A stretch of DNA of 64,000 nt from Candidatus Omnitrophota bacterium (GTDB taxonomy: Bacteria; Omnitrophota; Gorgyraeia; Duberdicusellales; 4484-171), in NCBI GenBank assembly GCA_014729775.1, contig WJJJ01000022.1, positions 13,313 through 77,312 on the forward strand, given 5' to 3'. The position numbers and the translations under genes are program-made. Every line of letters begins with the position of its first letter. The first letter of the stretch is position 1. Under the pieces are notes generated by a model. That model did no database searches and was not told the DNA's origin. It worked only from the letters and a program-made list of their open reading frames with translations. Below, piece after piece: positions 451 to 64,000 of this stretch.

Positions 451-486
451 TTCACAATTGAAGCGTTCCTTGCTCCCGGCAGTAAC

Positions 487-3845: not shown

Positions 3846-3937
3846 GGAGTGTTTATTCTACCAGACTGGTACCGATTGAAAAGCATTTTTCTCGCGCTTT
3901 CTTCCCGCACGGAGAGAATTGACTTTTGGGATGAATT

Positions 3938-5101: not shown

Positions 5102-5253
5102 CCCTCCCGTTCAAGAAATGACGACTTCCTCTCTCTTTTGCAGCCTCTCGCTGTGTCAGCATACCCGGATATCAGGCCGTCAAATAATGAGCAGGAAAAC
5201 CGCAAAGAGCAGACGTTTCTGATCCCGGGAAACTCTGTTTCAGGGATGTTTCG

Positions 5254-8454: not shown

Positions 8455-8526
8455 AACTGCCGCAGTGTTTTCGCTTCAGAAGTCATTATAGCAGGATTTA
8501 CCCCGGGGCGCCAGATGAAACCTGTG

Positions 8527-9732: not shown

Positions 9733-9749
9733 CGTGTTCCTTTCGGTAG

Positions 9750-36843: not shown

Positions 36844-38940
36844 CTAGCGGGATTTCTCCGCCTTCTTTTCCTCGATGATCTTTTCGGCAATTTCGTAAGG
36901 AACCTCGACATACTTTTCGAAATGCATACTGTAGGTCGCCCTCCCGCTGGTCAACGATCTTAAAGTAGTCGCGTATCCGAACATTTCGGAAAGCGGAGCT
37001 TCGGCCGAGATCACCTGATTGCCCGCCTTGGAATCGATCCCGAGCACTTTTCCTCTTCGGGAACACACATTGCCCACGACGCTTCCGACAAAATCCTCCG
37101 GGGTATTCACTTCCAACGACATCGAAGGCTCGAGCAATACCGGAGCACAGCGCATGAAGGCCAGCTTAAAGCATTCGCTTCCCGCGATCTTAAACGCCAT
37201 TTCCGAAGAGTCGACATCGTGGTAGGAACCGTCTACCAGATTTACCCGAACGTCAACCACCGGATACCCGGCCATAACCCCCTTCTTCATCGTTTCGATA
37301 ATCCCCTTTTCCACCGCGGGAATATATTCGCGGGGAATCGCCCCGCCGGTGATCTTGTTGTTAAACTCAAATCCTTCGCCCGGATTTGCCGGCTCGATCT
37401 CCAGCACCACATGGCCGTACTGTCCCCGCCCCCCGGTTTGCTTCGCGTATTTGTGATCCTCCCGGGTATTATTGAGAATAGTCTCTTTGTAGGCCACTTT
37501 CGGCTGACCGATCACCGCCGCAACTTTAAACTCGTGCTTCAAGCGGTCAACGATCACTTCCAAATGTAATTCTCCCATCCCGGAGAGAATCGTTTCTTCG
37601 GTTTCCTGATCAAAACCGACGGTAAAGGTGGGGTCTTCCTCTGCGAGGCGCGCGAGCGCTTTCCCTAATTTTTCCTGCTCTGCCCGGCTTTCCGGTTTAA
37701 TACTGATCGCCATCACCGGCGCGGGAAATTCGATCGCCTCAAGCAGCACCGGGTTTTCCGGATCGCATAACGTATCTCCGGTCACCGTATGATCAAGTCC
37801 GATCGCCGCGCCGATATCGCCGGCATACAGCGTCTCGCGCATTTCCCGCTGATTGGCGTGCATCTGCAAAATCCTGCCGACCCGCTCTTTCCTTCCTTTC
37901 GTGGAATTCAGCACGTACGAACCGGATTCGAGCTTTCCGGAGTAGATGCGAAAATAAATCAGCTTCCCCATATGGGGATCTGCCTGCACCTTAAACGCCA
38001 GCGCCGAAAAGCGATCGTCATCGTTCGCTTTGCGGATCACTTTTTTCTCTTTGTCATCCGGATCCATCGCCTCGGTCGGCGGAAGGTCAAGCGGCGAGGG
38101 GAGAAACCGCGTTACCGCGTCCAGCAGCCGCTGTACGCCTTTATTCTTAAACGCCGAACCGCACATAAGCGGAACGATATCGTTATTCACCGTCCCTTTC
38201 CGGATCGCTTTTTCCAGTTCCTCTTTCGAAATACTGTCTTCCGATTCCAGATATTTTTCCATCAGAGAGTCTTCCAGCTCGACTGCTTTTTCCACCATCA
38301 CGTGGTGATATTTTTTGGCCGTGTCCAGGTAGTCCGCGGGAATTTCTTCAGCATGATAATTTTTCCCGAAGGACTCGTCGTCGTAGATATACGCCTTCAT
38401 ATCCATCAAATCAATGATCCCGCGAAACTTATCCTCGGCTCCGATCGGAATCTGCAGGGGGATCACGTTCGCCTTAAGCTGATTTTCTATATTTTTCAGC
38501 ACTCCGAAGAAATCGGCACCGATCCGGTCCATCTTATTCACGAACGCGATCTTCGGTACATTATACTTTTCAGACTGCCGCCAGACGGTTTCCGACTGCG
38601 GCTCCACGCCTCCCACCGCGCAAAAAATCGCGATGGCTCCGTCCAAAACCCGCAGGGACCGCTCGACCTCTACCGTAAAATCCACGTGTCCCGGAGTATC
38701 GATGATATTAATGCGGTGATCGTTCCAGAAACAGGTCGTCGCCGCGGAAGTAATCGTGATTCCCCGCTCCTGTTCCTGCTTCATCCAATCCATCTGCGCC
38801 TGCCCGTCGTGCACCTCGCCGATTTTGTGAGTTTTCCCGGTATAATACAATACACGCTCGGTAAGAGTCGTTTTCCCCGCGTCAATATGGGCCATAATCC
38901 CGATATTGCGCACCATATGCAGTTCAACCTTTCTTGCCAT
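36844..38940 (-). CDS. fusA: Elongation factor G (canonical)
   Basis: [33 protein letters not shown] and NKMD motifs with full five-domain EF-G. Start set at MARK. Confidence 0.92.
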
Positions 38941-39008
38941 GAGTATCAATCCTCCTTAGATATTCAACGGGTCTTAAAGATGTTATTGTAATAAAAAAAG
39001 AAGAGAAA

Positions 39009-48700: not shown

Positions 48701-49165
48701 ACGCTCTTTCACCTCCTCGTCCAGCTGCGCGATACGCTTTTCGGCGTCGTCCAAAGACCGCTGAAGATTGACCTTTTTGGAAAATTCCTTTTCCAGCTCC
48801 TTTTCTTTTTTCAGAAATTTTTCTTTTAATTGCCGATTCTCTTCGACCATTTTTTCCATCTTTTCATGCTCGTGCGCATCCCATTTTTTCTGCCGGTCAA
48901 GCTCCTCCGCGAGATCCTTCTTTTTTTCGCGCAGCTGCTCCTGTTCCTTCTGCGCGGAGGAAAGCTTCCTTTTCATCTCCTCGTTCTTTTGCTTCAGCTC
49001 CACCCCTTCTTCCTTGAAAAACTCGGCGCGGCGGCGCTGCTCCTCAACCAACGCCTTATAATTCTCCCTCTGCTCCCGTTTCTTGCGTTCTTCAGGACTG
49101 TAGAACAGGTAATATACCAGTCCAAGCGCACCGACCATTAAAATGATGAATATCAGTTGCATCAC
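45710..49165 (-). CDS. Membrane-anchored coiled-coil / acidic-linker / EF-G fusion protein (EF-G paralog with a ~450-aa N-terminal extension)
   Basis: Single 1151-aa ORF. Residues 1-22 form a TM helix ([22 protein letters not shown]). Residues ~25-250 are K/E-rich heptad coiled coil. Residues ~250-450 are D/E/A/G-rich low complexity. A complete EF-G follows ([63 protein letters not shown]...DTPGHVDF...NKMD... through domain V), about 85% identical to fusA in the G domain. Confidence 0.8.
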
Positions 49166-49185: not shown

Positions 49186-49220
49186 CCCCATTTGTCCACC
49201 CCGGGGGTGGACAAATGGGG
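49186..49220. repeat. REP-like 35-nt perfect palindrome (CCCCATTTGTCCACCCC-G-GGGGTGGACAAATGGGG)
   Basis: Seen directly in the sequence. Lies between the EF-G-fusion start and the RAYT stop. Confidence 0.6.
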
Positions 49221-49227
49221 GCTCAGC

Positions 49228-49872
49228 TCATTCATACAGAAGGTGCTTGATCCGCGCCAGTTTCCGCTGGTCATCGATCCGCTCCTCGGTAAAGCGCCGG
49301 TACTGCGCGGGTAAGATCTCCAGGTATTCGTCTTTGGCGCATATGTGCGTTTCAGACGCACCCTGCCCCAAATATTCCCGGTAGGACGAATATTCCCAGT
49401 CCTGCGGTCTCTCGACTAGCCCGGCGGTCACCGGATTCAGGTGCAGATACCGGGTCAAATGCAGCAGCTGCTCATCCGTTTCCACCCGCACGTTCTTGAA
49501 CCGGCCTTCCCATAACGGTCCTCTGCGGGAATGGGCGGTATTGAAATAGCGCGCGTAACTATTGGCGATATTGTTCATGAACAGAGAGATCCCGTCTTCG
49601 GCCCGCTGCGCGAGCACCAAATGAATATGGGTCGGCATCAGGCAATAGGCCACGACCGCGACGCCCTCCTTCTCTACGGACCGGCGCGGCGGACGATGCT
49701 TGCGCTGTACGAACCGGGAGAACTTCTCGCGCGGATCTGTCTGCCGGTAGTAGGTGATCGCGTCGATCATCCGGCCGTATTCGCCGGCGGTGGTAAAAAT
49801 CTCATACCCGGCAATACTCTTATTAAATACGTGATAGAGGTGACCGCTGACCAGCGGACAGGGACGCTTCAT
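49228..49872 (-). CDS. IS200/IS605-like Y1 (HUH) transposase of the REP-associated tyrosine transposase (RAYT) type
   Basis: 214 aa with HUH motif THIHLVL and a C-terminal Tyr region (WEYSSYREY). Flanked on both sides by inverted copies of the same palindrome. Confidence 0.8.
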   Translation of the reverse strand: MKRPCPLVSGHLYHVFNKSIAGYEIFTTAGEYGRMIDAITYYRQTDPREKFSRFVQRKHRPPRRSVEKEGVAVVAYCLMPTHIHLVLAQRAEDGISLFMNNIANSYARYFNTAHSRRGPLWEGRFKNVRVETDEQLLHLTRYLHLNPVTAGLVERPQDWEYSSYREYLGQGASETHICAKDEYLEILPAQYRRFTEERIDDQRKLARIKHLLYE

Positions 49873-49899: not shown

Positions 49900-49930
49900 A
49901 TTTGTCCACCCCCGGGGTGGACAAATGGGG
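49900..49930. repeat. Second REP-like palindrome (ATTTGTCCACCCC-C-GGGGTGGACAAATGGGG), inverted relative to the first
   Basis: Same arms as the 49186..49220 copy but with the complementary centre nucleotide and without the outer CCCC on the left arm. Confidence 0.6.
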
Positions 49931-49946: not shown

Positions 49947-52900
49947 TTACGGAGCTTCGGCACAGCCGATGGTCACGGTGATCGTCTGCTCGGTCTTCTC
50001 GGTATTGGGATTAGGCGCGACAAACTGCAGGTAGAGAGCCCGTTCTTCGCCGGCCGGCACGCTTTCGGCATTCGTCGCAAACCCGGCGAAAATCGCGCTG
50101 GTCGCGCTCACTTCCGACGTGGTGGCCACGTCGTCGGAGGCAAAATCAAACTGTCCGGGCACGTCGGACGTACCGCAGAAGATACACTTCATCACGTAAA
50201 TATCATTCCCCGCGGAGCTGCCCGAACTCCATGCCGCCGGATCGGTGAGCTGGGCGGAAAACTGTTCGTTCACATCGCCGTCGTTCTCGATCGTGATCTT
50301 ATCGGCCGAATCCATGGTCACCGTCTCCCCGGCACCGACGATCCCGGGAATATTCCACTCCGCCGGGACCGGATCGGTAATGAGAATACTGATCGTCTTG
50401 GTAATATCCGGCGCGTTGATCGCCTGCGAAGAATCCGTGGGTACGGGATCGGTCCCCAGCGACACCGCGCTGTCGCCGCCCTCAGAGGCGGTAAAATAAT
50501 AGGACAGGTTATCCATGACCCCGGCCGGATCCCAGGCAAAGGTCGTATCGTAATAATAGATCTTGCCGTCGCTATAATCGGTATCACCGGGATCCTCTTC
50601 AAGCATCGCGTATCCGGTCCACGCCCCCAGCCCGTTCTCGTCCAGATGGACCTGAATGCTGTCCGGCGCCTGATCACCGTAATGGGTGTACCTGACCCGG
50701 TAGCTAAAGGTGGTGGTCGTCCCGCCGATTTCCGGATCAAGCCCGTCGCCGGTATAGGCAGCGATATCGCCTACCCACTCCAGCAGAGGAACGCTCAACG
50801 CGTTTAAGTTCTCATCGGCCCCGATATCCGGCGGATCGGCCCGGGCATCGCCGTCAAAATCCGTGGTATACCCGGCAATGGCGTTACCCTGCTGCTGACA
50901 CAGCGAATCATCCTGGATATGGAGATCGGTGGACGAAGTAAACTGGGGATCCCGGGAAATCGAATTTGCATCCTGGCCGGTGCCGCTCACCCAGTCGCTG
51001 AGCTCGGCATAGGAACTGCCGCCCTGTCTGCCGGCCTGCGCGTTGTTCGGCGCGTAAAAATCGTTGTAGTCGGACGTGTAATTGGAATCGGCCGAATAAA
51101 AACAGTAATCCCCAGTGCTATTGGAACTGATGGACATGATATTGTTCTGAAAATCATTCCCGGTCCCCTGGTAATTATAGATACAGTAGTCATTGACGAT
51201 CGATACCGAGTTATAATACACTTCGGCATTCGTATTCCGGTACAGATAAATCCCGTAGCCCCCGTTCATGCCGTAGATCATGTTGTTGTACACTTTGACG
51301 GCGGCACTGTACCGGAAATAAATACCGAACCGGTCACCCTCCAGCGTGTTGTTTCTGATCTCATTGTCATTACAATTGTCGTCAAGATAGATATTCGCGT
51401 AATTCCCGCTGGTCCCGACCCCGGAAATGTAGTTGCCGTCAATCACGTTATTGGTCGCGTAGTTATGCAGGTAGATCCCGTGTTCGGTACAGGAGGTGAT
51501 ATCAAATCCCTGAATGGTGATGAAGTCGGCGCTGTTGAGATCAAACCCGTAGGTGCTGCCGTTGACCGTCACGGTTTCACCTAAAGCCTCCTGGAAGGTA
51601 ATGGTATTGGAGGAACTGGCGCCGTTGACCTCCTCCAGAGATACCTCCTCCACGTAGGTCCCGCTGTAGACGTCAAACGTCACCGCTCCGCCGACCCCCC
51701 GGTTGACCAGGTCACTCACCGCGGCGGTGAACGACACATAATCGCCGCTGCCGTCGGTCTTGATCGTGTATGTCCCCGATAACGGGGCCGGTTTGGGGTT
51801 TAAGTTTTCGTCGGCCCCGATGTCCGGCGGATCAGCCCGGGCATCCCCGTCGTAATCGTCGCTGTAACCGGCCAGGGCGGTCCCGGTATTCTGACAGGGC
51901 GATCCGTCGCCGATATGCAGATCGGTGGTGCTGGTATAGAGCGGATTGGAAGAAAACGAGTTGGCGTCCTGGCCTGTGGCAGTCTGCCAGTCGGACAGCG
52001 TAGACTGCACTCCTCCGTAATAGCCGATGCTTGCGCCGTTGGGCGCGTACATATCGTTGTAGTCGGAGGTGAACGGGTACGAAGCGATATTGCCGTCCTG
52101 GTTATAAAAACAGTAATGCCCGCTGTTGGTGGAATGATTGTACAGAATGTTATTTTGAAAATCGTTATTGGAACCCTGGAATTTCAAAACACAGCGAACC
52201 GCCATATAGATACTGTTGAAATAAAACTCGGTATCGTCACAGCGGTAGATATAGGCGCCGTATCCGGAAGTATCATAAATCATATTATTGTAAACCTTGG
52301 TGCCGTCGGCGTAATACAGGTACACCCCGTAGTAGTCTGCGGCGATCTCGTTGCCGGAAATCTCATTGTCATCACAACTCGTATCGATCCGGATCCCCGC
52401 GTAGTTGCCGCCGCTGCCGACGTTGTAGATATAATTTTCCCGGATCACGTTATTCGTCGCCCCGTCGGTGAGGTACACCCCGTGATCAGTGGTCGAGGTA
52501 ATATCGAACCCTTCTAACCGGATATAATCAGCCCCGTCCAGAAAAAAGGCGTACTGATCCCCGTTTACCAGCACCGTTTCTCCGGCCGCCTCCCGGAAAG
52601 TAATGGTGTTTGCCGCGCTGGCGCCGGCAATCGGGCCGATCTCGACCTCTTCCACGTAGTTAGCCCCGCCGTCGTCGTAGACGTCAAAGGTCACCGCGCC
52701 GTTGACCCCCAGTACTTCCAGATCGTCCACGGCCAGCGCAAACGAGGTATAATCGCCGGTCCCGTCCTGGTTAATCGTATAGCCGCCGCTCATCGGCGGA
52801 GGTACGGGGTTGGTGTTCTCGTCGGCGCCGATATCGGGCGTCGCAGCGCGGGCGTCGCCGTCGAAGTCATCACTGATCCCGGCGGCGGATATCCCCGCGC

Positions 52901-55900
52901 CCTGACAGGGGGAGGCATCGGCAATGTGCAGATCGTCTGCCGCGGTAAAACGCGGGTTCCGGTCGATGGAATTGGCGTCCTGCCCCGTGGCCGCCTGCCA
53001 GTCAGCCAGAGTTTCCTCATCGGATCCGTTATTGTAAGCCACGTGGGCGCCGGAAGGCGTATAGAAATCGTTGTAATCAGAGGTATACGGATAAGAGCCG
53101 ATCGCGCCGTCCATACGCAGACAGTAATCATTGGCGTTGGTTGACACATTGGCAAACACGTTATTCTGAAAATCATTGCCCAAACCGCGGTATTTTCGCA
53201 GACAGTAATCGCCGTCGTGCCGGATACTGTTAAAATAAAACTCGGTGTTGTCACAGCGGTTCAGATAGACACCGTAGTTGCCGGCGTTGTAAATCATGTT
53301 GTTGTAGATTTTATTCCCGTCGGCAAAGTACATGTAGATCCCGTAATAATCACCGTCGATCTCGTTCCCCGCGATTTCATTGTCGTCACAGCTGGTATCG
53401 AGCCGGATCGCCGCGTAGTTGCCGCCGGATCCGGTACTGTAGAAATAGTTGCCTTTGATCACGTTATTGGTCGCGCCGTTGACCAGATACACCGCCTCTT
53501 CGCTGGTCGAGGTGATGGTAAAGCCTTGAAGGGTAATGTAGTCGGCTCCGTCAAAATAAAACGCGTTGGCATCACCGTTGACCAGCACGCTTTCCCCGGC
53601 GGCTTCACGGAAGGTGATGGTATTACTTGAACTTGCTCCGGCGATCTCGCCGATCTCGACCTCTTCCACGTAGTTAGCCCCGCCGTCGTCGTAGACGTCA
53701 AAGATCACCGCTCCGCCGACGCCCAGCAATTCGAGATCCGCCACGGCCAGGGTAAAGGACGTGTAATCCCCGCTGCCGTCCTGATTAATGGTATAGTTTC
53801 CGCTCATCGGCGGGGGAACGGGATTGGTGTTCTCGTCGGCGCCGATATCGGGCGTCGCGGCGCGGGCGTCGCCGTCGAAGTCATCACTGATCCCGCCGGC
53901 AGAAGTCCCCGCGCCCTGACAGGGGGAGGCGTCGGCAATGTGCAGATCGTCTGCCGCGGTAAAGCGCGGGTTCTGCGAAATGGAATTGGCATCCTGCCCC
54001 GTCGCGGTCTGCCAGTCACTCAGAGCCGCCTGGTCGCTTCCGTAATAGCCGATACTGGCGCCGTTGGGCGCGTACATGTCGTTGTAGTCGGCGGTGAACG
54101 GATAGGTCGCGATGTCGCCGTCCTGGACATAAAAACAGTACCGGTTTGACGCGGTATAGGAATTGTACAACACATTATTCTGGAAATCATTACCCGTACC
54201 GCGGTATTTTTGAATACAGCGGCCGTTATCGTTGCTGATCGAATTAAAATAGCAGTCAGTGTTATTGGCCCGGTTCATGTACACGCCGTAGTAATCCACG
54301 CCGTAGATCATGTTGTTGTAAATCGTGGTACCATCGGCGAAATACAGGTACACGCCGTAATAATCACCGTCGATCTCGTTCCCCGCGATTTCATTGTCGT
54401 CACAGCTGGTATCGAGCCGGATCGCCGCGTAGTTGCCGCCGGAACCGATCCCGTAGAGATAATTGTCCTCGATCACGTTATTGCTCGCCCCGCTGGTTAA
54501 ATAAATCCCGTGCTGGGTCGTGGACGTGATGTCAAAGCCCTGTATCGTCACGTAATCGGCACCGTTGAGATAAAAAGCGTAGGTATCACCATTAATTGCC
54601 ACACTTTCCCCCGCCGCCTCCTGAAAAGTGATCGTATTGGCCGCGCTCGCCCCGCTGATTTCACTCAATTCGACTTCTTCCGGGTAAGTCGCGCCGCCGT
54701 CATCATACACGTCAAACACGACCGCACCGCCCACGCCGAGCAGATTCAAATCGCTCACCGCGTCGGAGAAAGAGGTATAATCCCCGGTCCCATCCTGTTT
54801 AATCGTGTAATTACCGCTCATCGGCGGCGGAGGCGGGTTGGTATTCTCGTCGGCGCCGATGTCCGGCGTGGCCGCGCGGGCGTCATCATCGTAGTCATCA
54901 CTCACGCCGCCGGCGGAGGTCCCCGCGCCCTGGCAGGGCGAGGCGTCGGCAATGTGCAGATCAGAGGTAGACGTAAACAGCGGGTTCTGCGAAATGGAAT
55001 TCGCATCCTCCGACGTCGCGGTCTGCCAATCGCCCAGAGTGGATTGTGCGCTTCCGTAGTAGCCGATCGAGGCGCCGTTGGGCGCGTACAGGTCGTTGTA
55101 ATCGGAGCTGAACGAATAGGTCGCTTTATCGCCGTCAGCGTTGTAAAAACAGTAATATCCGGAGTTTGTGGAATTGTTATACAAAATATTATTTTGAAAT
55201 TCATTCCCCGTGCCGCGGTATTTGTACAGAGAACGGCCGATGTCGCTATAGACCGAATTAAAATACACCCCGGTATCGTCGCAGCGGTTCATGTAAATCC
55301 CGTAGTAGTTCACCTCGTAAATCATATTGTTGTACACCTGTGTCCGGTCCGCCAGAAGCAGGTAGAGACCGTAATAGTCCCCTTCGATCGTATTCGCCGA
55401 CACTTCGTTATCGTGACAGCCGGTATCGATCCGGACGCTGGCGTAATTCCCCGAAGTACCGGCATCGTATATATAGGTGTCGCGCAGAATGTTGTTGGTC
55501 GCGCCGTTGGTCATATACACGCCGTGCTCGGTACAACTGGTAATCTCGAAATCTTCAATTATGACGTAGTCAGCCCCGTTAAGATAAAAACCGTACACAT
55601 CGCCGTTCACCAAAACGCTTTCCCCGGCGGCTTCGCGAAAGGTAATGGTATTGGAAGAGCCTGCACCCACGATTTCCGGAATCTCCACCTCTTCGGTATA
55701 AGTACCTCCGCCGTCGTCGTACACGTCGAAGGTCACCGCGCCGCTCACGCCCAGGGCGTCAAGGTTATCGACCGCGAGACTAAACGAGGTATAGTCTCCG
55801 GAACCGTCCTGATTAATCGTGTAACTGCCGCTCATCGGCGGCGGCGGGGCGTTGAGATTTTCATCGGCGCCGATATCGGGCGTCGCCGCGCGCGCGTCGC

Positions 55901-58900
55901 CGTCATAATCGTCGCTGATCCCGCCGGCGGAAATCCCGGCACCCTGGCAGGGGGAAATGTTCTGAATGTGCAGATCGTCGGCGGCGGTAAAGCGCGGGTT
56001 CTTGGACAGCGAATTAGCGTCCTCGGCCGTCGCGGTCTGCCAGTCGGCCAGCGAAGCCTGAGCCCCGCCGTAATAGCCGGCACTGGCCCCGGAGGGCACG
56101 TAAAAATCATTGTAATCGGAGGTGAACGAATAGCTGGCCTTGTCCCCGTCCCCGTTATAAAAACAGTAATGGCCGGAGTTGGTCGAAGTGTTGGAAAGGA
56201 TATTGTTCCGGTAATCGCCGTTTGCCCCCTGGTACTTATAGAGACACCGGCCGCCGTCGTTGTCGATCGAATTAAAGAGAAACTCCATGTCGTCACAGCG
56301 GTAGATGTACACGCCGTAGTACCCGACGTCGTAGATCATGTTGTTATAGATGCTGGTTCCGTCGGCGTAGCGTAAGTAGAGTCCGTACCGGTCGCCGACA
56401 ATTTCGTTTCCGGCAATCGTATTATCGTCACAGTCGGCGTCAACGCGGATCCCGGCATAGTTACCCGAGGTGCCGACCGTATGGATATAATTGTTCTGGA
56501 TCGTATTATTGGTGGCGTAATCATCGAGGTAAATCCCGTGTTCGGTACAACTGGTGATTTCAAACCCGTCGATCGTCACGTAATCGGAATCGGACAGATA
56601 AAACCCGTAAGTGTCTCCATCCACAGTCACATCCTCGCCCGGAAATTCCCGGATAGCGATCGTATTGGATGAGCTCGCTCCCGGGATATCCTCCAAATTG
56701 ACCTGCCCGGAATACATCCCGTCATAGACATCGATCCGCACCCAGCCGGACACGCCTTCGTCATTTAAATCGCTGGCCGCCTGCGTGATCGCGGTGTAAT
56801 TTCCGCCGCCGGCGGCAATGACCGTGTACACTCCGCTCATCGGCGTGGAACCGCCCAGATTTTCGTCGGCGCCGATGTCCGGCGGCGTGCCCCGGGCTTC
56901 CCCGTCGAAATCGGTGGTGAACCCCGCAATCCCGGCTCCTTTGGCCAGACAGGAAGAGCTATTGCTGATATGGAGGTTGGTGGAACTTAAGAAATCGGGA
57001 TCGCTGGAGATCGAATTGGCATCTTCCGACGTCGCCGTCTGCCAGTCGGACAGCGAAGCCTGGGCCCCGCCGTAATACCCGACGCGGGCGTTGGGCGCGT
57101 AAAAATCGTTATAATTTGAGGTAAAGGTATACGTGCTCTTGTCGCCGTCGGCCACAAAGAAACAGTAATAACCGAGGTTATTCCCCACCTGGAAGACGGC
57201 GTTGTTGCGGAATTCGTTGTTGGTCCCTTGATTTTTGTAAATACAGCGGTTGACTTCCTGACGGATCGAATTGTAATAAACCTCGGTATTATCGGCATCA
57301 TCCATGTAGATCGCTGCGTAACTGGCATCGGCAATCATATTGTTATCGATCACCGTGCCGTCGGCGGAATTCAGATAGACCCCGTACCGGTCGGCGGTCA
57401 TCCGGTTGGCGCTGACCGTATTATCGTTACTGGCGGTGTCGATGTACACGCTGGAATAGTTGCCGCCGGTTCCGGTCCCGTAAAGATAGTTGCCGGTAAT
57501 CGTATTGTCGGTCGCGGCATTATCCAGCAAGACGCCGTCCTGCGTGCAGTCAGTCAGCTCAAATCCCTGGATGGTGATATAATCGGCACCGTCTAAATGG
57601 ACCACGTTCTCCTCGCCTTCTGCGTCCACGGTCACGTTCTCTCCGGACGCCTCCTGGATGGTGATCGTATTCGCCGCGCCGGCTCCGGTCACCGCCGAAA
57701 GGTCGATCGTCTCGGCATAGGTACCCGAATACACGTCGATCGTCACCGCGCCGCTCACCCCCAGCGCTTCCAGATCGTTCACTGCCGCGCCGATGGACAG
57801 ATAGTCCCCGCTCCCGTCCTTTTTCACGGTATAGGTGCCGCTCATGGCGTTCCCGGCGCTGGTATTCTCATCGGCACCGATGTCCGGGGTCGCAGCGCGG
57901 GAATCACCGTCGTAATCGCCGCTGATGCCGCCAATCGCGGTCCCCTGTCCCTGACAGGCCGAATTATAGCCGATATGCAGGTCCTGAGGACTGCCGAACT
58001 GCGGGTCGCCGCTGATCGAATTGGCGTCTTCGGCGGTCGCGGTCTGCCAGTCGGCCAGCGCCGCCCGGGCCGACCCGTAATAACCGGCACTGACGCCGTT
58101 GGGAGCATAGAAATCGTTATAATCGGACGTGAACGAGTAGGTCGCCTTGTCGCCGTCCTGATTAAAGAAACAATAGTAATTCGCGTTGGCCGACGTATTC
58201 GATAAGATATTGTTCTGAAAATCGTTGTTGCTCCCCTGGTTCTTGTGGATACAACGGCCGAAGGTATTGGAGATCGAATTGAAATGCACGTCAACGTTCG
58301 ATACCTGATAGAGGTAGACCCCGTAATAATCACTTAAGATCATGTTATTGAGGAGCGTGTTGTTGCCGGAATTGTCGTCGAGCCGGATCGCCGCGTAGTT
58401 GCCTTCGGCTCCGACGTCATGTATATAGTTACCCTCGATCGTGTTGTAGCGGGCGAAATTCGTCAGGTACACCCCGTGCTGGGTGCTCTCATACATTTCA
58501 AATCCGCGAATCGTGACGTAATCGGTATCATCCAGATACCAGATATAGGTACTGCCGTTGGCGTCGATCTCCACGCTCTCGCCGGAGGCCTCCTGAATGA
58601 TGATCGTATTGGCCGCACTCGCTCCCGGGATCTGCTCCATATCGACCTGCCCGGTATAGGTTCCCGAATACACGTCCACCGTCACCGCGCCGTTGACCCC
58701 GTTGCTTTCCAGGTCGCTCACCGCGGCGATAATCGTCAGGTAATCCCCGCTGCCGTCGGTCTTCACCGTGTAGGTCCCGCTCATTGCCGCCGGCGGCGGA
58801 TTCAAATTTTCATCGGCGCCGATGTCCGGAGTGGCCGCCCGGGCGTCCCCGTCGTAATCATCACTGATCCCGCCGGCTGAGATACCCGCCCCCTGGCAGG

Positions 58901-61900
58901 GAGAGACGTCCTCCAAATGCAGGTCACTGTCACTTGCGAAATAGGGATTGGTCGAGATCGAATTGGCATCCTGGGAAGTCGCGGACTGCCAGTCCGAAAG
59001 CGTGTCCCGGACCGAATTGTAATATCCGGCCGAAGCGCCGTAGGGCGCGTAAAAATCATTGTAGTCGGACGTGAAGGGGTAGGTGGCGATGTCGCCATCG
59101 CCGTTATAAAAACAGTAATCTCCGGCATTGGTCGACGTCAATGACAATATGTTGTTTTGGAAATCATTGTCACTGCCGCGGAATTTGTAAATACAGTAAT
59201 CATTATCGATATGGATTGAGTTGAAATAAAATTCTCCTTCGTCACAGCGATTGATGTACAAACCAAAATCCCCGACCCCGGTGATCATGTTGTTGTACAC
59301 GCTCAGATTATCCGAATACTGCATGTACACGCCGAAGCGGTCGCCGTCGATCCGGTTATTGCTTATCTCGTTGTCATGACAGTTGTTGTCCAGATATACC
59401 CCCGCGTACCCTCCGGAATCGCCCACACTGTGAATGTAATTTTCGGTAATGATGTTATTCTGTGCGCCGTTGGTCAGGTATATTCCGTGCTCATCGGCAT
59501 TGGTGATCTCAAACCCGCTCAAAGTCAGATAATCGGTCCCGTCCAAAAAAAACACGTAAATATTCCCCTCGACTACCACGGTCTCCCCGGAGGCCTCCTG
59601 AATGGCGATCGTATTGGCCGCGCTCGCTCCGGGGATCTCGCCGATATCGACCTGGCTCATGTAGGTTCCCGAATACACGTCGATCGTCACCGCACCGCTG
59701 ACTCCCTTGCTTTCCAAGTCGCTTACCGCGGCAACGATCGTCAGGTAATCGCCGCTGCCGTCCTGTTTGACAGTATAGGTCCCGCTCAACGCCGCCGGCG
59801 GAGGATTCGGGTTCTCGTCGGCGCCGATATCCGGGGGATCGGCCCGGGCGTCGCCGTCGTAATCATCAGTGTACCCGGCCAACGCGGTCCCCGCGCCCTG
59901 ACAGGGCGAGGCATCCTGAATATGCAGATCGCTGGATGAGGTAAACTGCGGGTTTTGGGAAATGGAATTGGCGTCCTCAGCCGTCGCCGTCTGCCAATCG
60001 TTCAACGTCACCCGCGCGCTACCGTAATAGCCGATATTGGCCCCGACCGGCGCATACAGGTCATTGTAATCAGAGGTAAATGAGTACGTTGCTTTATCCC
60101 CGTCGGCGTTGTAAAAACAGTAAAAGCCCGAATTGGAAGAATAATTGTACAACACATTGTTCTGGTATTCGCCGTTGGTTCCCTGGTATTTGTACAGACA
60201 GCGGTCGCCGTCGATGTAGACCGAGTTGAAATTGCACTCGATGTCATCGCAGCGATAGATGTAAATCCCGTAATCATAGCAGTCGCTGATCATGTTATTG
60301 TGAATCCTGGAATCATCGGCATAGCGCAGATACACGCCGAAGCGGTCGCCTTCAATCCGGTTGCCTTCAACCTCGTTGAAATCGCAGTTCTCGTCGATCC
60401 GGATTCCGGCATAACCGCCGGTCGTGCCGACGTCGTGGATATAATTGTTGCTGATCACATTATTATTCGCGGCGTTTTCCAAAAAGATCCCGTGCTCATC
60501 AGTACCGGTAATCTCAAACCCCTCGATCACGATATAATCGGCTCCATCCAGATAAAAACCATAAGTATCTCCCTCCACCACTACCGTTTCCCCCGCGCTT
60601 TCCTTAAACGTCACGGTATTGGAGGAACCGGCACCGGTGATTTCAGATATGGCAACCTCGCTCATGTAGGTACCCGAATATACATCGATGATCACCGGGC
60701 CGTTAACGCCGTTGAATTCCAGATCGGACACTGCCGCAACGATCGTCAGGTAATCCCCGCTGCCGTCCTGTTTCACGGTATAGGTGCCGCTCATCGGCAC
60801 CGGCGGCGGATTCAGGTTTTCATCGGCACCGATATCCGGCGGTGTACCGCGCGCGTCCCCTTCGAAATCCGCCGTGTACCCGGCCAGCGCGGTCCCTGAA
60901 TTCTGACAGGGCGAGACATCCTCAATATGCAGATCGTCAACGGCCACGAACTGCGGATTCTGGGAAATGGAATTGGCGTCCTGGCCCGATGCGCCCTGCC
61001 AGTCGGACAGCGTGGCCCGCACACCCCCGTAGTAGGCAACGTTGGCCCCGTTTGGCGCGTAGATATCGTTGTAATCGGAAGTAAACGGGTAGGAGCCCAC
61101 GTCGCCGTCGAACCGCATACAGTAATGGCCCGTGTTCGTCGAGTAGTTATAAAAAATATTGTTTTTTATGTCGTGATTGGACCCCTGGTATTTGCGGAAA
61201 CAGTAATCCTGATCGATCGATACCGAATTATAGTGCACCTCGGCGTCGTCGCCGCGGAACAGGTAAATCCCGTAATTATTCACACCGGTAATGAGGTTAT
61301 TGGCCACCACCGCCCCGTCGGCATAGCGCATATAGATCCCGTTATTGTCACCGTCGATCTCATTGCCCAGGATCGAATTATCATCACAGTTATCATAGAC
61401 ATACACCCCGGACGCGCCGCTGGAAGTCCCGATGTTGTAAATATTGTTGCCTTCAATGGTATTATTATTCGCCCCGTTTTCCAGGAAAACCCCATCCTGG
61501 GTCACGTTGGTCATATCGAACCCTTTGACCGTCAGGTAGTCGGTCCCGTCCAGATGAAACACATACGTATTTCCCTCCACGGTGACGGTCTCGCCGCTCG
61601 CTTCCTGGATAGTGACCGTATTGGCCGCGCTCGCCCCGGGGATCTCTCCAATGTCCACCTGGCTCATATAGGTCCCCGAATAGACATCCACGGTGACCAC
61701 GCCGCTGACCCCTTTGCTCTCCAGATCGCTCACCGCGGCCACGATCGTCAGGTAATCGCCCGAACCGTCGGGCTTCACGGTATAGGTACCGCTCATCGGC
61801 GCGGGAGGCGGATTCAGATTCTCGTCGGCACCGATATCCGGCGGAGTAGCGCGGCTGTCTCCGTCGTAATCGGTGGGATACCCGCCGATTGCCACTCCGG

Positions 61901-64000
61901 CTCCCTGACACCCCGAAACATCCTGAATATGCAGATCGGTCCCGCTCACGAAAAACGGATTCTCGTTGAGCGAATTGGCATCTTCCGAAGTCGCGGCCTG
62001 CCAGTCAGAAAGGGTTGTCTGAGCGCCGGCATAATAGCCGATAGTGGCTCCGGCCGGGGCGTAGAGATTATTGTAATCCGAATTAAACGTGTAGGTAGCT
62101 TTATCGCCACGGGCGTAAAAACAATAGTCTCCCGAGTTCCCGGAGGTAAGATGCATGATGTTGTTTCGGAAATCTCCGTTCGTACCCTGGTAGCGATACA
62201 GACAGATGTCGTCATCCAGATACAGGGAATTAAAATACATTTCGGTATCGTCACAGCGGTACAGGTACACGCCGTAGTTCCCGACGTTATAAATCATATT
62301 ATTATAAATCTGTATGCCGTCGGCATACCGCAAATACATCCCAAACAGATCACCGTTGATCTCATTGCCGCGAATCACATTGTTGTCGCAGTTATCGTGC
62401 ACTCTGATCCCGGTATAGTTCCCGGAAGTCCCGACGTTATAAATATAGTTTCCGCTGATCACGTTGTTGCCGGCGCCGTTCTCCAATAAAATCCCGTGCT
62501 CACTGCAGTTAGTAATATCAAAACCGTCAAGGGTAATGTAATCGGCCCCGTCCAGATAAAATACGTAGGTGCCTCCTTCCACGGTCACCGACTCCCCGGC
62601 GGCCTCCTGGATGATGATGGTGTTGACCGCGCTGACGCCGGCAATTTCGGCAATGTCGACCTGGCCCATGTAGGTACCCGAATACACGTCGATCGTCACC
62701 GCCCCGCTCACTCCGCTGAATTCTAAATCGCTGACTGCGGCAATGATCGTCAGGTAATCGCCGCTGCCGTCCTGTTTGACAGTATAGGTCCCGCTCATTT
62801 TCGCCGGGGCGGGGTTGAGATTTTCATCGGCACCGATATCCGGAGGCGTACCGCGCGCGTCGCCGTCGTAATCAGCACTGACCCCGGCAACGGCATTACC
62901 TGCGCCTTGACAGGGTGAGTTATCCTGGATATGGAGGTCGGTTGAGGACACAAACTGGGGATTGAGGGCAATGGAATTGGCATCCTGCCCGGTAGCCGCC
63001 TGCCAGTTGGCCAGAGTACTTTGGGCGCCGCCGTAGTAACCGGTACTCGCGCCGGCCGGCGCGTAGAAGTCGTTATAATCGGAGGTGAATCCGCTTCCCT
63101 GGGCGTAGATACAGTAATACCCGGCGTTGGTCGAGGTGTTGAGCAACACGTTATTTTCAATCGTGTTCCCGCTGCCGTTGACTACCCGCAGGCACCGGCC
63201 GAAGGTGTGATAGACTGAATTGAAATAGACATCGGTATTGGAAGTAACATCCAGATAGATCCCATAATAATCACCAAGGATCATGTTATTTACAATACTG
63301 TTGCCGGCAGTGTAGGCGTCACAGTACACGCCCGAATAATTACCACTGTTGCCGATGTTATGGATGTAGTTCTTGCTGATGGTATTGTAATTGGCGTAGT
63401 TGGAAAGGTATACCCCGTGCCGGTTGGTGTTGGAGATATCAAACCCTTCGATCGTAACGTAATCGGCACCGTCTAAATGAAACGCGTAATCACTGCCCTC
63501 GACCGCCGCGTTCTCTCCGGCCGCCTGGCGGATGACCACCGGATTGGCGGCACTCGCCCCGGGGATTTCCTCGATCGTCACCTCGTTCATGTACGTTCCG
63601 GTATACACATCAATGGTCACCCCTGGCGCGGCGACCCCGCGGTATTCCAGATCGGCAACCACGTCGATGAGCCGGGTGTAGTCGCCGCCTCCGCCCTGCT
63701 GTACGGTGTACGTCCCGCTTAACGGCGCCGGCGGCGCGTTTAGATTCTCATCGGCGCCGATATCCGGTGGCGTGCCGCGCGCGTCCCCGTCGTAGTCAGC
63801 CGCAATTCCCCCGACCGCATTCCCCGCTCCCTGGCAGGGCGAAGCGTCCTGGATGTGCAGATCGGCCGCGTCCGTAAAAAACGGATTGGTGGAGATCGAA
63901 TTGGCGTCCTCAGCCGTCGCGGCCTGCCAGTGAGCCAGGGTGTTTTGCGCGCCGCCGTAGAAGCCGACGTTGGCGCCGTTGGGTGCGTACAGGTCGTTGT
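49947..64000 (-). CDS. Giant secreted/surface protein of tandem right-handed parallel beta-helix (PbH1/NosD-like) domains, N-terminus beyond window end (partial, >4,680 aa)
   Basis: At least 13 complete ~330-aa repeats in the window, each ending ...DYDGDARxxxPDIGADEN-LNPPP-MSGTYTVKQDGSGDY. Each carries conserved Cys (NCDxN, RCDD, DYCFY, SPCQGAG). The ORF-track GTG at 63662 is not the start: the same frame stays open to position 64000 (...DIGADENLNAPPAPLSGTYTVQQGGGGDYTRLIDVVADLEY...). A unique ~295-aa C-terminal domain ends ...TVTIGCAEAP. Confidence 0.85.
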   Translation of the reverse strand, partial: NDLYAPNGANVGFYGGAQNTLAHWQAATAEDANSISTNPFFTDAADLHIQDASPCQGAGNAVGGIAADYDGDARGTPPDIGADENLNAPPAPLSGTYTVQQGGGGDYTRLIDVVADLEYRGVAAPGVTIDVYTGTYMNEVTIEEIPGASAANPVVIRQAAGENAAVEGSDYAFHLDGADYVTIEGFDISNTNRHGVYLSNYANYNTISKNYIHNIGNSGNYSGVYCDAYTAGNSIVNNMILGDYYGIYLDVTSNTDVYFNSVYHTFGRCLRVVNGSGNTIENNVLLNTSTNAGYYCIYAQGSGFTSDYNDFYAPAGASTGYYGGAQSTLANWQAATGQDANSIALNPQFVSSTDLHIQDNSPCQGAGNAVAGVSADYDGDARGTPPDIGADENLNPAPAKMSGTYTVKQDGSGDYLTIIAAVSDLEFSGVSGAVTIDVYSGTYMGQVDIAEIAGVSAVNTIIIQEAAGESVTVEGGTYVFYLDGADYITLDGFDITNCSEHGILLENGAGNNVISGNYIYNVGTSGNYTGIRVHDNCDNNVIRGNEINGDLFGMYLRYADGIQIYNNMIYNVGNYGVYLYRCDDTEMYFNSLYLDDDICLYRYQGTNGDFRNNIMHLTSGNSGDYCFYARGDKATYTFNSDYNNLYAPAGATIGYYAGAQTTLSDWQAATSEDANSLNENPFFVSGTDLHIQDVSGCQGAGVAIGGYPTDYDGDSRATPPDIGADENLNPPPAPMSGTYTVKPDGSGDYLTIVAAVSDLESKGVSGVVTVDVYSGTYMSQVDIGEIPGASAANTVTIQEASGETVTVEGNTYVFHLDGTDYLTVKGFDMTNVTQDGVFLENGANNNTIEGNNIYNIGTSSGASGVYVYDNCDDNSILGNEIDGDNNGIYMRYADGAVVANNLITGVNNYGIYLFRGDDAEVHYNSVSIDQDYCFRKYQGSNHDIKNNIFYNYSTNTGHYCMRFDGDVGSYPFTSDYNDIYAPNGANVAYYGGVRATLSDWQGASGQDANSISQNPQFVAVDDLHIEDVSPCQNSGTALAGYTADFEGDARGTPPDIGADENLNPPPVPMSGTYTVKQDGSGDYLTIVAAVSDLEFNGVNGPVIIDVYSGTYMSEVAISEITGAGSSNTVTFKESAGETVVVEGDTYGFYLDGADYIVIEGFEITGTDEHGIFLENAANNNVISNNYIHDVGTTGGYAGIRIDENCDFNEVEGNRIEGDRFGVYLRYADDSRIHNNMISDCYDYGIYIYRCDDIECNFNSVYIDGDRCLYKYQGTNGEYQNNVLYNYSSNSGFYCFYNADGDKATYSFTSDYNDLYAPVGANIGYYGSARVTLNDWQTATAEDANSISQNPQFTSSSDLHIQDASPCQGAGTALAGYTDDYDGDARADPPDIGADENPNPPPAALSGTYTVKQDGSGDYLTIVAAVSDLESKGVSGAVTIDVYSGTYMSQVDIGEIPGASAANTIAIQEASGETVVVEGNIYVFFLDGTDYLTLSGFEITNADEHGIYLTNGAQNNIITENYIHSVGDSGGYAGVYLDNNCHDNEISNNRIDGDRFGVYMQYSDNLSVYNNMITGVGDFGLYINRCDEGEFYFNSIHIDNDYCIYKFRGSDNDFQNNILSLTSTNAGDYCFYNGDGDIATYPFTSDYNDFYAPYGASAGYYNSVRDTLSDWQSATSQDANSISTNPYFASDSDLHLEDVSPCQGAGISAGGISDDYDGDARAATPDIGADENLNPPPAAMSGTYTVKTDGSGDYLTIIAAVSDLESNGVNGAVTVDVYSGTYTGQVDMEQIPGASAANTIIIQEASGESVEIDANGSTYIWYLDDTDYVTIRGFEMYESTQHGVYLTNFARYNTIEGNYIHDVGAEGNYAAIRLDDNSGNNTLLNNMILSDYYGVYLYQVSNVDVHFNSISNTFGRCIHKNQGSNNDFQNNILSNTSANANYYCFFNQDGDKATYSFTSDYNDFYAPNGVSAGYYGSARAALADWQTATAEDANSISGDPQFGSPQDLHIGYNSACQGQGTAIGGISGDYDGDSRAATPDIGADENTSAGNAMSGTYTVKKDGSGDYLSIGAAVNDLEALGVSGAVTIDVYSGTYAETIDLSAVTGAGAANTITIQEASGENVTVDAEGEENVVHLDGADYITIQGFELTDCTQDGVLLDNAATDNTITGNYLYGTGTGGNYSSVYIDTASNDNTVSANRMTADRYGVYLNSADGTVIDNNMIADASYAAIYMDDADNTEVYYNSIRQEVNRCIYKNQGTNNEFRNNAVFQVGNNLGYYCFFVADGDKSTYTFTSNYNDFYAPNARVGYYGGAQASLSDWQTATSEDANSISSDPDFLSSTNLHISNSSSCLAKGAGIAGFTTDFDGEARGTPPDIGADENLGGSTPMSGVYTVIAAGGGNYTAITQAASDLNDEGVSGWVRIDVYDGMYSGQVNLEDIPGASSSNTIAIREFPGEDVTVDGDTYGFYLSDSDYVTIDGFEITSCTEHGIYLDDYATNNTIQNNYIHTVGTSGNYAGIRVDADCDDNTIAGNEIVGDRYGLYLRYADGTSIYNNMIYDVGYYGVYIYRCDDMEFLFNSIDNDGGRCLYKYQGANGDYRNNILSNTSTNSGHYCFYNGDGDKASYSFTSDYNDFYVPSGASAGYYGGAQASLADWQTATAEDANSLSKNPRFTAADDLHIQNISPCQGAGISAGGISDDYDGDARAATPDIGADENLNAPPPPMSGSYTINQDGSGDYTSFSLAVDNLDALGVSGAVTFDVYDDGGGTYTEEVEIPEIVGAGSSNTITFREAAGESVLVNGDVYGFYLNGADYVIIEDFEITSCTEHGVYMTNGATNNILRDTYIYDAGTSGNYASVRIDTGCHDNEVSANTIEGDYYGLYLLLADRTQVYNNMIYEVNYYGIYMNRCDDTGVYFNSVYSDIGRSLYKYRGTGNEFQNNILYNNSTNSGYYCFYNADGDKATYSFSSDYNDLYAPNGASIGYYGSAQSTLGDWQTATSEDANSISQNPLFTSTSDLHIADASPCQGAGTSAGGVSDDYDDDARAATPDIGADENTNPPPPPMSGNYTIKQDGTGDYTSFSDAVSDLNLLGVGGAVVFDVYDDGGATYPEEVELSEISGASAANTITFQEAAGESVAINGDTYAFYLNGADYVTIQGFDITSTTQHGIYLTSGASNNVIEDNYLYGIGSGGNYAAIRLDTSCDDNEIAGNEIDGDYYGVYLYFADGTTIYNNMIYGVDYYGVYMNRANNTDCYFNSISNDNGRCIQKYRGTGNDFQNNVLYNSYTASNRYCFYVQDGDIATYPFTADYNDMYAPNGASIGYYGSDQAALSDWQTATGQDANSISQNPRFTAADDLHIADASPCQGAGTSAGGISDDFDGDARAATPDIGADENTNPVPPPMSGNYTINQDGSGDYTSFTLAVADLELLGVGGAVIFDVYDDGGANYVEEVEIGEIAGASSSNTITFREAAGESVLVNGDANAFYFDGADYITLQGFTITSTSEEAVYLVNGATNNVIKGNYFYSTGSGGNYAAIRLDTSCDDNEIAGNEIDGDYYGIYMYFADGNKIYNNMIYNAGNYGVYLNRCDNTEFYFNSIRHDGDYCLRKYRGLGNDFQNNVFANVSTNANDYCLRMDGAIGSYPYTSDYNDFYTPSGAHVAYNNGSDEETLADWQAATGQDANSIDRNPRFTAADDLHIADASPCQGAGISAAGISDDFDGDARAATPDIGADENTNPVPPPMSGGYTINQDGTGDYTSFALAVDDLEVLGVNGAVTFDVYDDGGANYVEEVEIGPIAGASAANTITFREAAGETVLVNGDQYAFFLDGADYIRLEGFDITSTTDHGVYLTDGATNNVIRENYIYNVGSGGNYAGIRIDTSCDDNEISGNEIAADYYGVYLYYADGTKVYNNMIYDTSGYGAYIYRCDDTEFYFNSIYMAVRCVLKFQGSNNDFQNNILYNHSTNSGHYCFYNQDGNIASYPFTSDYNDMYAPNGASIGYYGGVQSTLSDWQTATGQDANSFSSNPLYTSTTDLHIGDGSPCQNTGTALAGYSDDYDGDARADPPDIGADENLNPKPAPLSGTYTIKTDGSGDYVSFTAAVSDLVNRGVGGAVTFDVYSGTYVEEVSLEEVNGASSSNTITFQEALGETVTVNGSTYGFDLNSADFITIQGFDITSCTEHGIYLHNYATNNVIDGNYISGVGTSGNYANIYLDDNCNDNEIRNNTLEGDRFGIYFRYSAAVKVYNNMIYGMNGGYGIYLYRNTNAEVYYNSVSIVNDYCIYNYQGTGNDFQNNIMSISSNSTGDYCFYSADSNYTSDYNDFYAPNNAQAGRQGGSSYAELSDWVSGTGQDANSISRDPQFTSSTDLHIQDDSLCQQQGNAIAGYTTDFDGDARADPPDIGADENLNALSVPLLEWVGDIAAYTGDGLDPEIGGTTTTFSYRVRYTHYGDQAPDSIQVHLDENGLGAWTGYAMLEEDPGDTDYSDGKIYYYDTTFAWDPAGVMDNLSYYFTASEGGDSAVSLGTDPVPTDSSQAINAPDITKTISILITDPVPAEWNIPGIVGAGETVTMDSADKITIENDGDVNEQFSAQLTDPAAWSSGSSAGNDIYVMKCIFCGTSDVPGQFDFASDDVATTSEVSATSAIFAGFATNAESVPAGEERALYLQFVAPNPNTEKTEQTITVTIGCAEAP
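50830..64000 (-). repeat. Tandem array of ~990-bp coding repeats with long stretches of near-identical nucleotide sequence
   Basis: Near-identical blocks recur about 1020 bp apart, for example ttccacgtagttagccccgccgtcgtcgtagacgtcaaag at ~52660 and ~53680. Another example is ggtgttctcgtcggcgccgatatcgggcgtcgc at ~52810 and ~53830. Confidence 0.8.

Follow-up and report, generated by a model that had tools for sequence, protein, structure and literature searches.

A very large tandem beta-helix gene of an Omnitrophota bacterium and its probable product, a glycan-binding surface fiber

Omnitrophota are ultra-small bacteria with a host-dependent or predatory lifestyle, and their giant open reading frames (ORFs) are poorly understood. 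A role in adhesion or at the surface of the prey has been proposed for these ORFs, some of which encode Laminin_G_3 domains (PMC10066038, Seymour 2023). A prey-surface role has also been proposed by West-Roberts 2023 (10.1101/2023.11.21.568195), and the giant protein of V. archaeovorus has been suggested to form an extracellular coat (PMC10066038). Giants of the Archaeovorin type exceed 30 thousand amino acids (kaa) and combine many transmembrane regions with a SecA-DEAD helicase and with glycosyltransferase (GT) and tetratricopeptide repeat (TPR) domains, and those of the Dockerin type contain numerous dockerin/EF-hand and TSP3 repeats (10.1101/2023.11.21.568195). The current study deals with a giant gene on the minus strand of a 64,000-nucleotide (nt) stretch of DNA from a Candidatus Omnitrophota bacterium (contig WJJJ01000022.1), which was analyzed as a whole and is referred to as the window. 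It is a real, very large gene composed of at least 14 tandem, diverged copies of one beta-helix module, and on balance we lean toward reading its product as a secreted, very acidic, "beads-on-a-string" glycan-binding fiber at the cell surface or in the extracellular space of this member of the Omnitrophota.

The minus-strand ORF at positions 49947 to 63998 comprises 4,683 sense codons and the terminal stop codon at 49947 to 49949, and its translation is free of in-frame stops over the entire 14 kb up to the window edge. The reading frame is still open at that edge, so that the 5' end of the gene is cut off; the ORF listing begins at an internal GTG (63662) because it requires a start codon. 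The visible protein has a mass of 501 kDa and a very acidic pI of 4.05, is rich in Gly, Asp, Ala, Asn, and Tyr, as well as in Thr, contains only 0.9% Lys, and shows no hydrophobic segment of transmembrane quality in a hydropathy scan. The motif PDIGADEN occurs 14 times at a spacing of 308 to 338 amino acids (aa), which yields 13 complete units (U1 to U13) and one 85-aa partial unit (U0). The complete units can be aligned end to end with 63 invariant columns, and every unit opens with a short Pro-rich linker of 6 to 8 residues (LNPPPAPMSGTYTV...). A truncated ORF of more than 4,680 aa with at least 14 units, each with a conserved tail followed by a Pro-rich linker, had been proposed in the original prediction, which was made from the letters of the window, and all of this was borne out. 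The accompanying claim of five to six conserved cysteines per unit is roughly matched, since Cys occupies six alignment columns, two of them invariantly, one in 12 and another in 10 of the 13 units, with a range of three to seven Cys per unit. Units U1 and U6 each lack one whole 24-residue rung, and U9 to U12, which share 63 to 73% aa identity, all bear a "DDGG" insertion.

In the whole visible protein, Pfam recognizes only Beta_helix (PF13229; 13 stretches, 485 bits at a cutoff of 25.9) and the overlapping NosD model (15 stretches), and the NCBIfam parallel beta-helix repeat TIGR03804 is matched by all 13 units. An AlphaFold2 (AF2) model of U4, for which the 13-unit alignment served as input, reached a predicted local distance difference test score (pLDDT) of 81.6 and a predicted template modeling score (pTM) of 0.83. 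It consists of a regular stack of short strands up to residue ~270, i.e., about 10 rungs, with block-mean pLDDT values of 87 to 98 at residues 11 to 220 and of 80 to 81 up to residue 250. Foldseek searches of PDB with this model returned 57 chains at an E value of ≤1e-3; of the 50 listed, nearly all have a beta-helix, e.g., the Det7 tailspike (6f7k), an alginate lyase (6kfn), AlgG (4ozz), AlgE epimerases, pectin methylesterases, and RbmB; in a viral library, generic phage tailspikes were found. The PDB matches (E value of about 1e-5, template modeling [TM] score of 0.3 to 0.5, and 9 to 16% identity) are generic and thus do not imply a specific enzyme family. As had been predicted, each unit forms a complete beta-helix domain of the right-handed parallel type according to the model and its structural neighbors, which confirm a predicted fold of the PbH1 carbohydrate-binding/sugar-hydrolase type. 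Affiliation with NosD, the nitrous oxide reductase maturation protein, was rejected, as the units score 29 to 35 bits against a TIGR04247 cutoff of 300; nos genes are absent from the 37 window ORFs scanned. Models of CAZy-type or lyase families were not matched, the best AlgG value being E=0.4 in one of the 13 units.

Conservation was assessed for 52 full-length units from 17 proteins, with a threshold of at least 90% per position. The positions that pass it belong to the Asn ladder of the helix and above all to the C-terminal tail (W274, D281, S284, P289, L297-H298, S303, D318, D320, R324, P328, I330-G331, and D333-E334), and the helix faces vary. The tail pattern common to the units reads W..D..S...P...LH...S...D.D..R...P.IGADE, and a groove-like conserved set of acidic or basic residues was not seen in this sample. 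Conservation of ladder and tail in combination with variable faces argues against a shared catalytic groove and would fit a structural or binding module with diversifying surfaces.

With a profile built from the 13 units, a search of 1.84 billion representative proteins retrieved 25,422 of them at an E value of ≤1e-3. The top match, designated P0018 (4,590 bits), is a complete protein of 4,536 aa from the JGI metagenome 3300030616 (contig Ga0272442_10000824), which is also present on a 116-kb ENA contig. Its N terminus resembles a signal peptide and is followed by three Laminin_G_3 domains alternating with IPT-like segments, by 10 units of the giant protein's type (V1 to V10), and by a C-terminal domain with 50% identity that ends with ITIGCQAP. 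P0018 thus shares with the window protein the unit type, the collinear order of unit subtypes, and the two-part C-terminal domain with its TIGCxxP ending, but it has 10 units instead of at least 14, and its N terminus is complete whereas the window copy is truncated. The tail of U0 is 64% identical to the tails of V2 and V4. Scans of contigs for the locus gave a best match of 37% identity in genome contigs and of 59% in metagenome contigs, the latter being the P0018 contig itself. The neighboring genes differ from those of the window gene, with a giant CLIPPER/SdrD_B gene upstream of P0018 and UbiA downstream. On the contig region compared (L065), the upstream gene occupies positions 1 to 9957 of the plus strand and encodes more than 3,735 aa with CLIPPER and SdrD_B domains; because it directly precedes the P0018 gene, the relative clusters two giant surface-protein genes. 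A PilZ-domain protein is encoded ~8.6 kb downstream of the P0018 gene.

The history of the array can be traced unit by unit, since a full-length relative exists. Pairwise identities between units amount to 47 to 73% for aa and 59 to 74% for nt in our own alignments (mostly 60 to 81% nt according to a repeat finder), which contradicts the near-identical DNA repeats of the original prediction. Tandem Repeats Finder gave no output, which is uninformative because units of 1 kb exceed its maximal period of 500 nt. Four-fold degenerate sites are 33 to 61% identical between units compared with 36.6% expected from base composition, and this proximity to the expectation indicates that synonymous divergence is close to saturation for most pairs. 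Long identical nt stretches had also been predicted and do exist, but they are confined to four pairs: in codon-wise permutations (2,000 shuffles per pair), only four unit pairs had in-register identical runs above chance (P≤0.0005 each, i.e., ≤1/2,000 shuffles), with lengths of 89, 55, 53, and 32 nt. The longest exact repeat, the 89-nt tract of U10 and U11, probably arose by gene conversion on a micro scale, and all four tracts look like short conversion patches in an otherwise old array. Copies as diverged as these should not collapse in short-read assembly, and the special risk of assembly collapse that had been expected is not supported.

A neighbor-joining tree that combined the 13 complete units of the window with the 10 units of P0018 recovered the cross-species pairs U7-V6 (bootstrap support of 100) and U8-V7 (71), a short-unit subtype shared by U1, U6, V2, and V5, a window-specific clade of U9 to U12 (95), and a looser window-specific cluster of U2 to U5; the subtypes follow one another in collinear order in both proteins. 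The short-unit subtype is thus ancient and shared, and U9 to U12 stem from a V8/V9-like unit that expanded four-fold in this lineage. The tree indicates an array that is older than the split of the two organisms and was later enlarged here by local duplication, roughly from one to four and from two to four units. This pattern points to birth-and-death evolution with rare micro-conversion rather than to ongoing homogenization or recent amplification, and the same evolutionary conclusion was drawn for long Omnitrophota repeat proteins (10.64898/2026.06.07.730766). The recent duplication or ongoing concerted evolution that had been deduced from the window alone is hence not supported, given nearly saturated synonymous sites and cross-species orthologs (U7-V6 and U8-V7). 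Variation in copy number among relatives, which the original prediction had proposed to compare, is real (at least 14 versus 10 units) but results from old unit duplications. The coordinates of all parts of the gene are compiled in Table 1.

Table 1. Parts of the giant gene and identical tracts between its units (positions in the window)
Feature	Position	Strand	Remarks
Giant ORF, 5'-truncated	49947..63998	-	translation, unit parsing, Pfam, composition
Partial unit U0, last 85 aa of a beta-helix unit	63744..63998	-	ends with PDIGADEN
Unit U1, 308 aa	62820..63743	-	short type lacking one 24-aa rung; groups with V2 (P0018)
Units U2-U5 (334, 334, 335, 335 aa)	58806..62819; boundaries 61818, 60816, 59811	-	window-specific cluster
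Unit U4	59811-60815	-	modeled with AF2
Unit U6, 314 aa	57864..58805	-	short type; groups with V5 (P0018)
Unit U7, ortholog of P0018 V6	56859-57863	-	67% aa identity, bootstrap 100
Unit U8, ortholog of P0018 V7	55857-56858	-	64% aa identity, bootstrap 71
Units U9-U12 (338, 338, 338, 337 aa)	51804..55856; boundaries 54843, 53829, 52815	-	bootstrap 95
Unit U13, 332 aa	50808..51803	-	final array unit
C-terminal subdomain 1, beta-sandwich module	50433..50765	-	homology to PDB 6fhj residues 817-915
C-terminal subdomain 2, ~160 aa, beta-rich	49950..50432	-	ends with ...TVTIGCAEAP
89-nt identical tract, U10/U11	54355..54443 = 53341-53429	-	0/2000 permutations; longest exact repeat
55-nt identical tract, U11/U12	53649..53703 = 52635-52689	-	
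53-nt identical tract, U2/U5, 3 kb apart	62745..62797 = 59736-59788	-	
32-nt identical tract, U2/U7			

The array is followed by a C-terminal domain with two subdomains. A distinct domain ending with GCAEAP had been predicted, and only its length, given as ~295 aa, required correction to 286 aa. Residues 15 to 125 are homologous to residues 817 to 915 of the GH9 xanthanase of Paenibacillus nanensis (PDB 6fhj; phmmer E=7.7e-7, three-sequence profile E=4e-12). This enzyme has non-catalytic beta modules between its GH9 domain and the C-terminal CBM84 (PMC11002231), and from its position we infer that the matching segment is one of them. The last ~160 residues have no Pfam, NCBIfam, or PDB match, and the AF2 model of the domain (pLDDT of 37) was too low in quality for a fold search. 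Besides the giant protein, the domain was found only in P0018 and in P0001, a 249-aa JGI fragment with 72% identity; both end with TIGCxxP, and a Cys three to four residues from the C terminus is conserved in all three sequences (TIGC-x(2,3)-P). A search of 5.8 billion proteins with the domain was word-indexed, returned only P0001, and missed P0018, and in this search the giant protein itself appeared to be absent from the collection.

Known sorting classes were examined for this C terminus, and the predicted lack of an LPXTG, type IX secretion system (T9SS), or autotransporter signature was corroborated by the absence of Pfam and NCBIfam matches and of a hydrophobic helix. For T9SS cargo (Por_Secre_tail PF18962/TIGR04183 and the type-B C-terminal domain [CTD]), the last 286 aa gave no match at E≤0.1 (E≤10 for Pfam). 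A substrate of LPXTG sortase or PEP-CTERM exosortase can be dismissed on the basis of a maximal 19-residue Kyte-Doolittle mean of 0.97 and a chain that ends four residues past the Cys. An autotransporter or type V secretion system (T5SS) adhesin was rejected for lack of a Pfam autotransporter or related match, and subdomain 2 has only ~160 aa. The unit tail resembles the NCBIfam choice-of-anchor Q domain (NF041518, a 58-position model with a cutoff of 25 bits), but weak matches are confined to six of the 13 units (E=0.035 at best; U1 scores 13.4 bits) and none reaches the cutoff, so that this family was rejected as well. Choice-of-anchor Q proteins carry a C-terminal sorting signal after the domain; the C-terminal domain of the giant protein contains neither a hydrophobic helix nor a match to a sorting-signal model. 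The use of the C-terminal domain as a shared sorting tag was also discarded, because tblastn matches of the domain in the loci compared were confined to the orthologous gene, and the domain is absent from the giant gene adjacent to the P0018 gene.

The picture that we favor for the complete protein is modeled on P0018. Its N terminus would consist of a Sec signal peptide and three concanavalin-like lectin domains (Laminin_G_3) that alternate with IPT-like immunoglobulin (Ig) domains. This lectin head, together with the variable faces of the beta-helices, would attach to glycans of other cells or of polymers, and the array would chiefly provide distance, as a long spacer, and multivalent binding. 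Assuming 4.8 Å per rung and about 10 rungs, each unit would measure about 5 to 6 nm and the array roughly 70 to 85 nm, with the Ig-like (beta-sandwich) module and the ~160-aa domain at the C-terminal end of the rod. Over time, the array would change by the occasional duplication or loss of units and by rare, short gene-conversion patches. Such an adhesive function would fit the role proposed for the large ORFs of host-dependent or predatory Omnitrophota, and the adhesin or surface fiber of the original prediction is still the best reading in view of the signal peptide and Laminin_G_3 domains of P0018. We are considerably more doubtful about a bolder combination, which we regard as quite unlikely: that the ~160-aa TIGC-x(2,3)-P domain is an undescribed surface-attachment or sorting module of Omnitrophota and that the array serves as a tether of tunable length (10 units in P0018, at least 14 here) by which an N-terminal lectin head is presented to cells of the host or prey, which together would constitute a distinct third attachment architecture of the phylum.

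Several observations weigh against a glycan-binding fiber. The signal peptide and lectin head are extrapolated from P0018, whose units share 45 to 67% identity and whose locus lacks synteny with the window; the highly conserved tail is poorly modeled in U4 (pLDDT of <50 at residues 288 to 335); and, unlike at the loci of the >30-kaa Omnitrophota giants, secretion-system (including type II secretion system [T2SS]-like) or pilZ genes are absent within 50 kb downstream. Furthermore, the closest structural matches of the modeled unit are mostly enzymes, i.e., lyases, epimerases, esterases, and tailspike depolymerases. The protein might accordingly be conceived as a multi-catalytic polysaccharide degrader, in which each unit is an active lyase, hydrolase, or epimerase acting on the wall or matrix polysaccharides of the prey. 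This alternative is possible but unlikely. It can draw on the carbohydrate-active nature of the best fold matches (Det7, alginate lyase, AlgG, pectin methylesterases, and tailspikes), on the Pfam matches of the NosD/CASH type, and on the proposal that giant Omnitrophota proteins degrade surface polymers of the prey (PMC10066038; 10.1101/2023.11.21.568195). However, the fold matches are generic, no CAZy-type or lyase model was matched beyond the single marginal AlgG value, and what is conserved across the 52 units is the structural Asn ladder and the tail instead of a catalytic constellation in the helix body. In addition, two units lack a whole rung, and it would be unusual for a single chain to contain the same catalytic module fourteen times.

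A self-assembling S-layer-like or envelope coat protein, in contrast to a protruding adhesin, seems clearly improbable to us, even though the very acidic, Lys-poor composition rich in Gly, Asp, Asn, Tyr, and Thr would suit such a protein, a conserved C-terminal domain without a known family could mediate its attachment, and a coat has been proposed for V. archaeovorus (PMC10066038). Neither SLH nor other S-layer anchoring domains were detected by Pfam and NCBIfam in the visible protein, and the relative P0018 has a lectin head. A linear 14-module array with Pro-rich linkers is moreover typical of fibrous adhesins and not of lattice formers. Very improbable, and already largely refuted, is the notion of a contingency locus that was amplified recently, is prone to recombination, and consists of near-identical repeats, or of an assembly artifact or pseudogene. 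The four identical tracts of 32 to 89 nt, the higher copy number than in P0018, and the clustering of U9 to U12 and of U2 to U5 within the window genome could be cited in its favor, but they are outweighed by the low nt identity, by four-fold sites that approach randomness, and by the cross-species orthologs of U7, U8, and the short-type units. The stops that would mark a pseudogene, a possibility raised in the original prediction, are missing in 14 kb of sequence, as are frameshifts, and the unit lengths stay in register.

The gene is situated in an otherwise ordinary anaerobe chromosome encoding, e.g., an electron transfer flavoprotein (ETF) with ferredoxin domains, rubrerythrin, a flavodiiron protein, phosphoenolpyruvate carboxykinase (PEPCK), GH65, and RND/TolC efflux. 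GC skew is about zero over the giant gene (between -0.004 and -0.027 in six of the seven 2-kb bins; the bin at 60001 to 62000 has -0.088) and ranges from -0.05 to -0.19 elsewhere (window positions 1 to 50000), though all genes examined share one strand. Because the GC content is unchanged over the giant gene, the shift is not read as foreign origin and probably reflects the Gly/Asp/Asn/Tyr-rich composition. Immediately downstream on the same strand lies a gene resembling repetitive extragenic palindromic (REP)-associated tyrosine transposases (49228 to 49872, minus strand; Y1_Tnp), whose NF047646 score of 69.9 bits is under the cutoff of 80. It is flanked by 27-nt hairpin repeats at 49190 to 49216 and 49900 to 49926 (ATTTGTCCACCCC(N)GGGGTGGACAAAT); the two copies, identical except for the central base, are the only ones in the window. 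The upstream hairpin (49900 to 49926) begins 21 nt past the stop codon of the giant gene and could double as its terminator.

Three paralogs of the elongation factor G (EF-G) family are encoded within 50 kb (487 to 2478, 36844 to 38949, and 45710 to 49165, all on the minus strand). The last of them carries an N-terminal extension of ~460 aa in the same ORF, composed of a hydrophobic transmembrane-like helix, a Lys/Glu-rich coiled coil of ~225 aa, and an acidic low-complexity region of ~200 aa, ahead of a complete five-domain EF-G; within the extension, no competing ORF of ≥150 aa was found on the same strand. It may represent a membrane-tethered EF-G-like GTPase. The SMC-like protein at 5254 to 8454 is 100% identical to an NCBI protein from an Omnitrophica metagenome-assembled genome (annotated as "AAA family ATPase"), the next-best matches have 57% identity, and all listed matches with an organism name originate from Omnitrophota/Omnitrophica. 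Its Omnitrophota homologs P0191, P0248, P0267, P0272, P0274, and P0280 are 300 to 600 aa longer and bear intein/LAGLIDADG homing-endonuclease domains (PF14528 and PF14890), which the window copy lacks.

With respect to other beta-helix proteins, full units from the cap to the PDIGADE tail occur with 31 to 40% identity in homologs with one to four units from other uncultured bacteria, including candidate division WOR-3 (P0002 to P0009 with ~440 aa; P0028 and P0037 with four units; P0063 with three units; MBN2536755.1 from WOR-3). They have a signal peptide, and a Pro-rich linker follows their tail, but they differ by FN3-like or other C termini and lack the TIGCxxP domain. Most of the other top profile matches have 3 to 8 kaa, and those with an organism name include proteins of Bacteroidota, Sphingomonadales, and a candidate division; as these are multi-beta-helix proteins, very large proteins of this kind are common in environmental bacteria. 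Giants of the Bacteroidota/FCB group, e.g., MBD78936.1 of Crocinitomicaceae (5,025 aa), RPH33061.1 of Bacteroidales (7,452 aa), and MEO1263025.1, likewise contain many right-handed beta-helices with DIGAxE-type tails (unit profile E<1e-140), but theirs is a longer helix subtype with partial matches and five to nine tails per protein. By eye, the last 40 residues of many of them look like a T9SS CTD, an ending that the window protein lacks. Among the 150 best matches listed from the search, the window array is the longest of its unit type. The right-handed three-sheet PbH1 helix is also common to AlgG/AlgE, alginate and pectate lyases of PL families, pectin methylesterases, tailspikes, and NosD, but these carbohydrate-active beta-helices and NosD are single-domain proteins, unlike the 14-fold array, and resemble its units with 9 to 16% identity and TM scores of 0.3 to 0.5.

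The window protein has in common with the giant ORFs of Omnitrophota the phylum, the great length, and the nature of a repeat-built putative extracellular adhesin, but their size thresholds (>20 kb, ≥10 kaa, or >30 kaa) exceed the visible 14 kb of its gene, and its visible part lacks transmembrane helices and SecA, GT, TPR, dockerin, and TSP3 domains. Assignment to the Archaeovorin type was rejected because the visible 4,683 aa hold only Beta_helix/NosD and no transmembrane helix and the complete relative P0018 has 4,536 aa, and assignment to the Dockerin type because Pfam detected no dockerin/EF-hand or TSP3 repeats. The beta-helices described by West-Roberts are antiparallel tubules, in contrast to the parallel PbH1 helices predicted for the window units (10.1101/2023.11.21.568195). 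Resemblance is greater to the "Tandem-repeat scaffold" class (Nielsen & Lui 2026), in which a single Pfam domain dominates, as does Beta_helix with 13 stretches here, and in which nucleotide tandems are dissolved by divergence, as in the window units with their 59 to 74% nt identity; the corpus of that class starts at ≥10 kaa, the window gene runs off the edge, and P0018 has just 4.5 kaa. All in all, the giant protein joins the known large, repetitive surface proteins built from beta-helices, in a phylum with an established record of giant adhesin-like genes, and its only truly unfamiliar element is the small C-terminal domain. It does not overturn the current understanding and is a modest, useful data point, a well-resolved addition to the catalog of very large adhesin-like Omnitrophota proteins that, unlike most giant ORFs of the phylum, can be interpreted domain by domain, from a lectin head placed by homology through the array and the Ig-like module to the tail.

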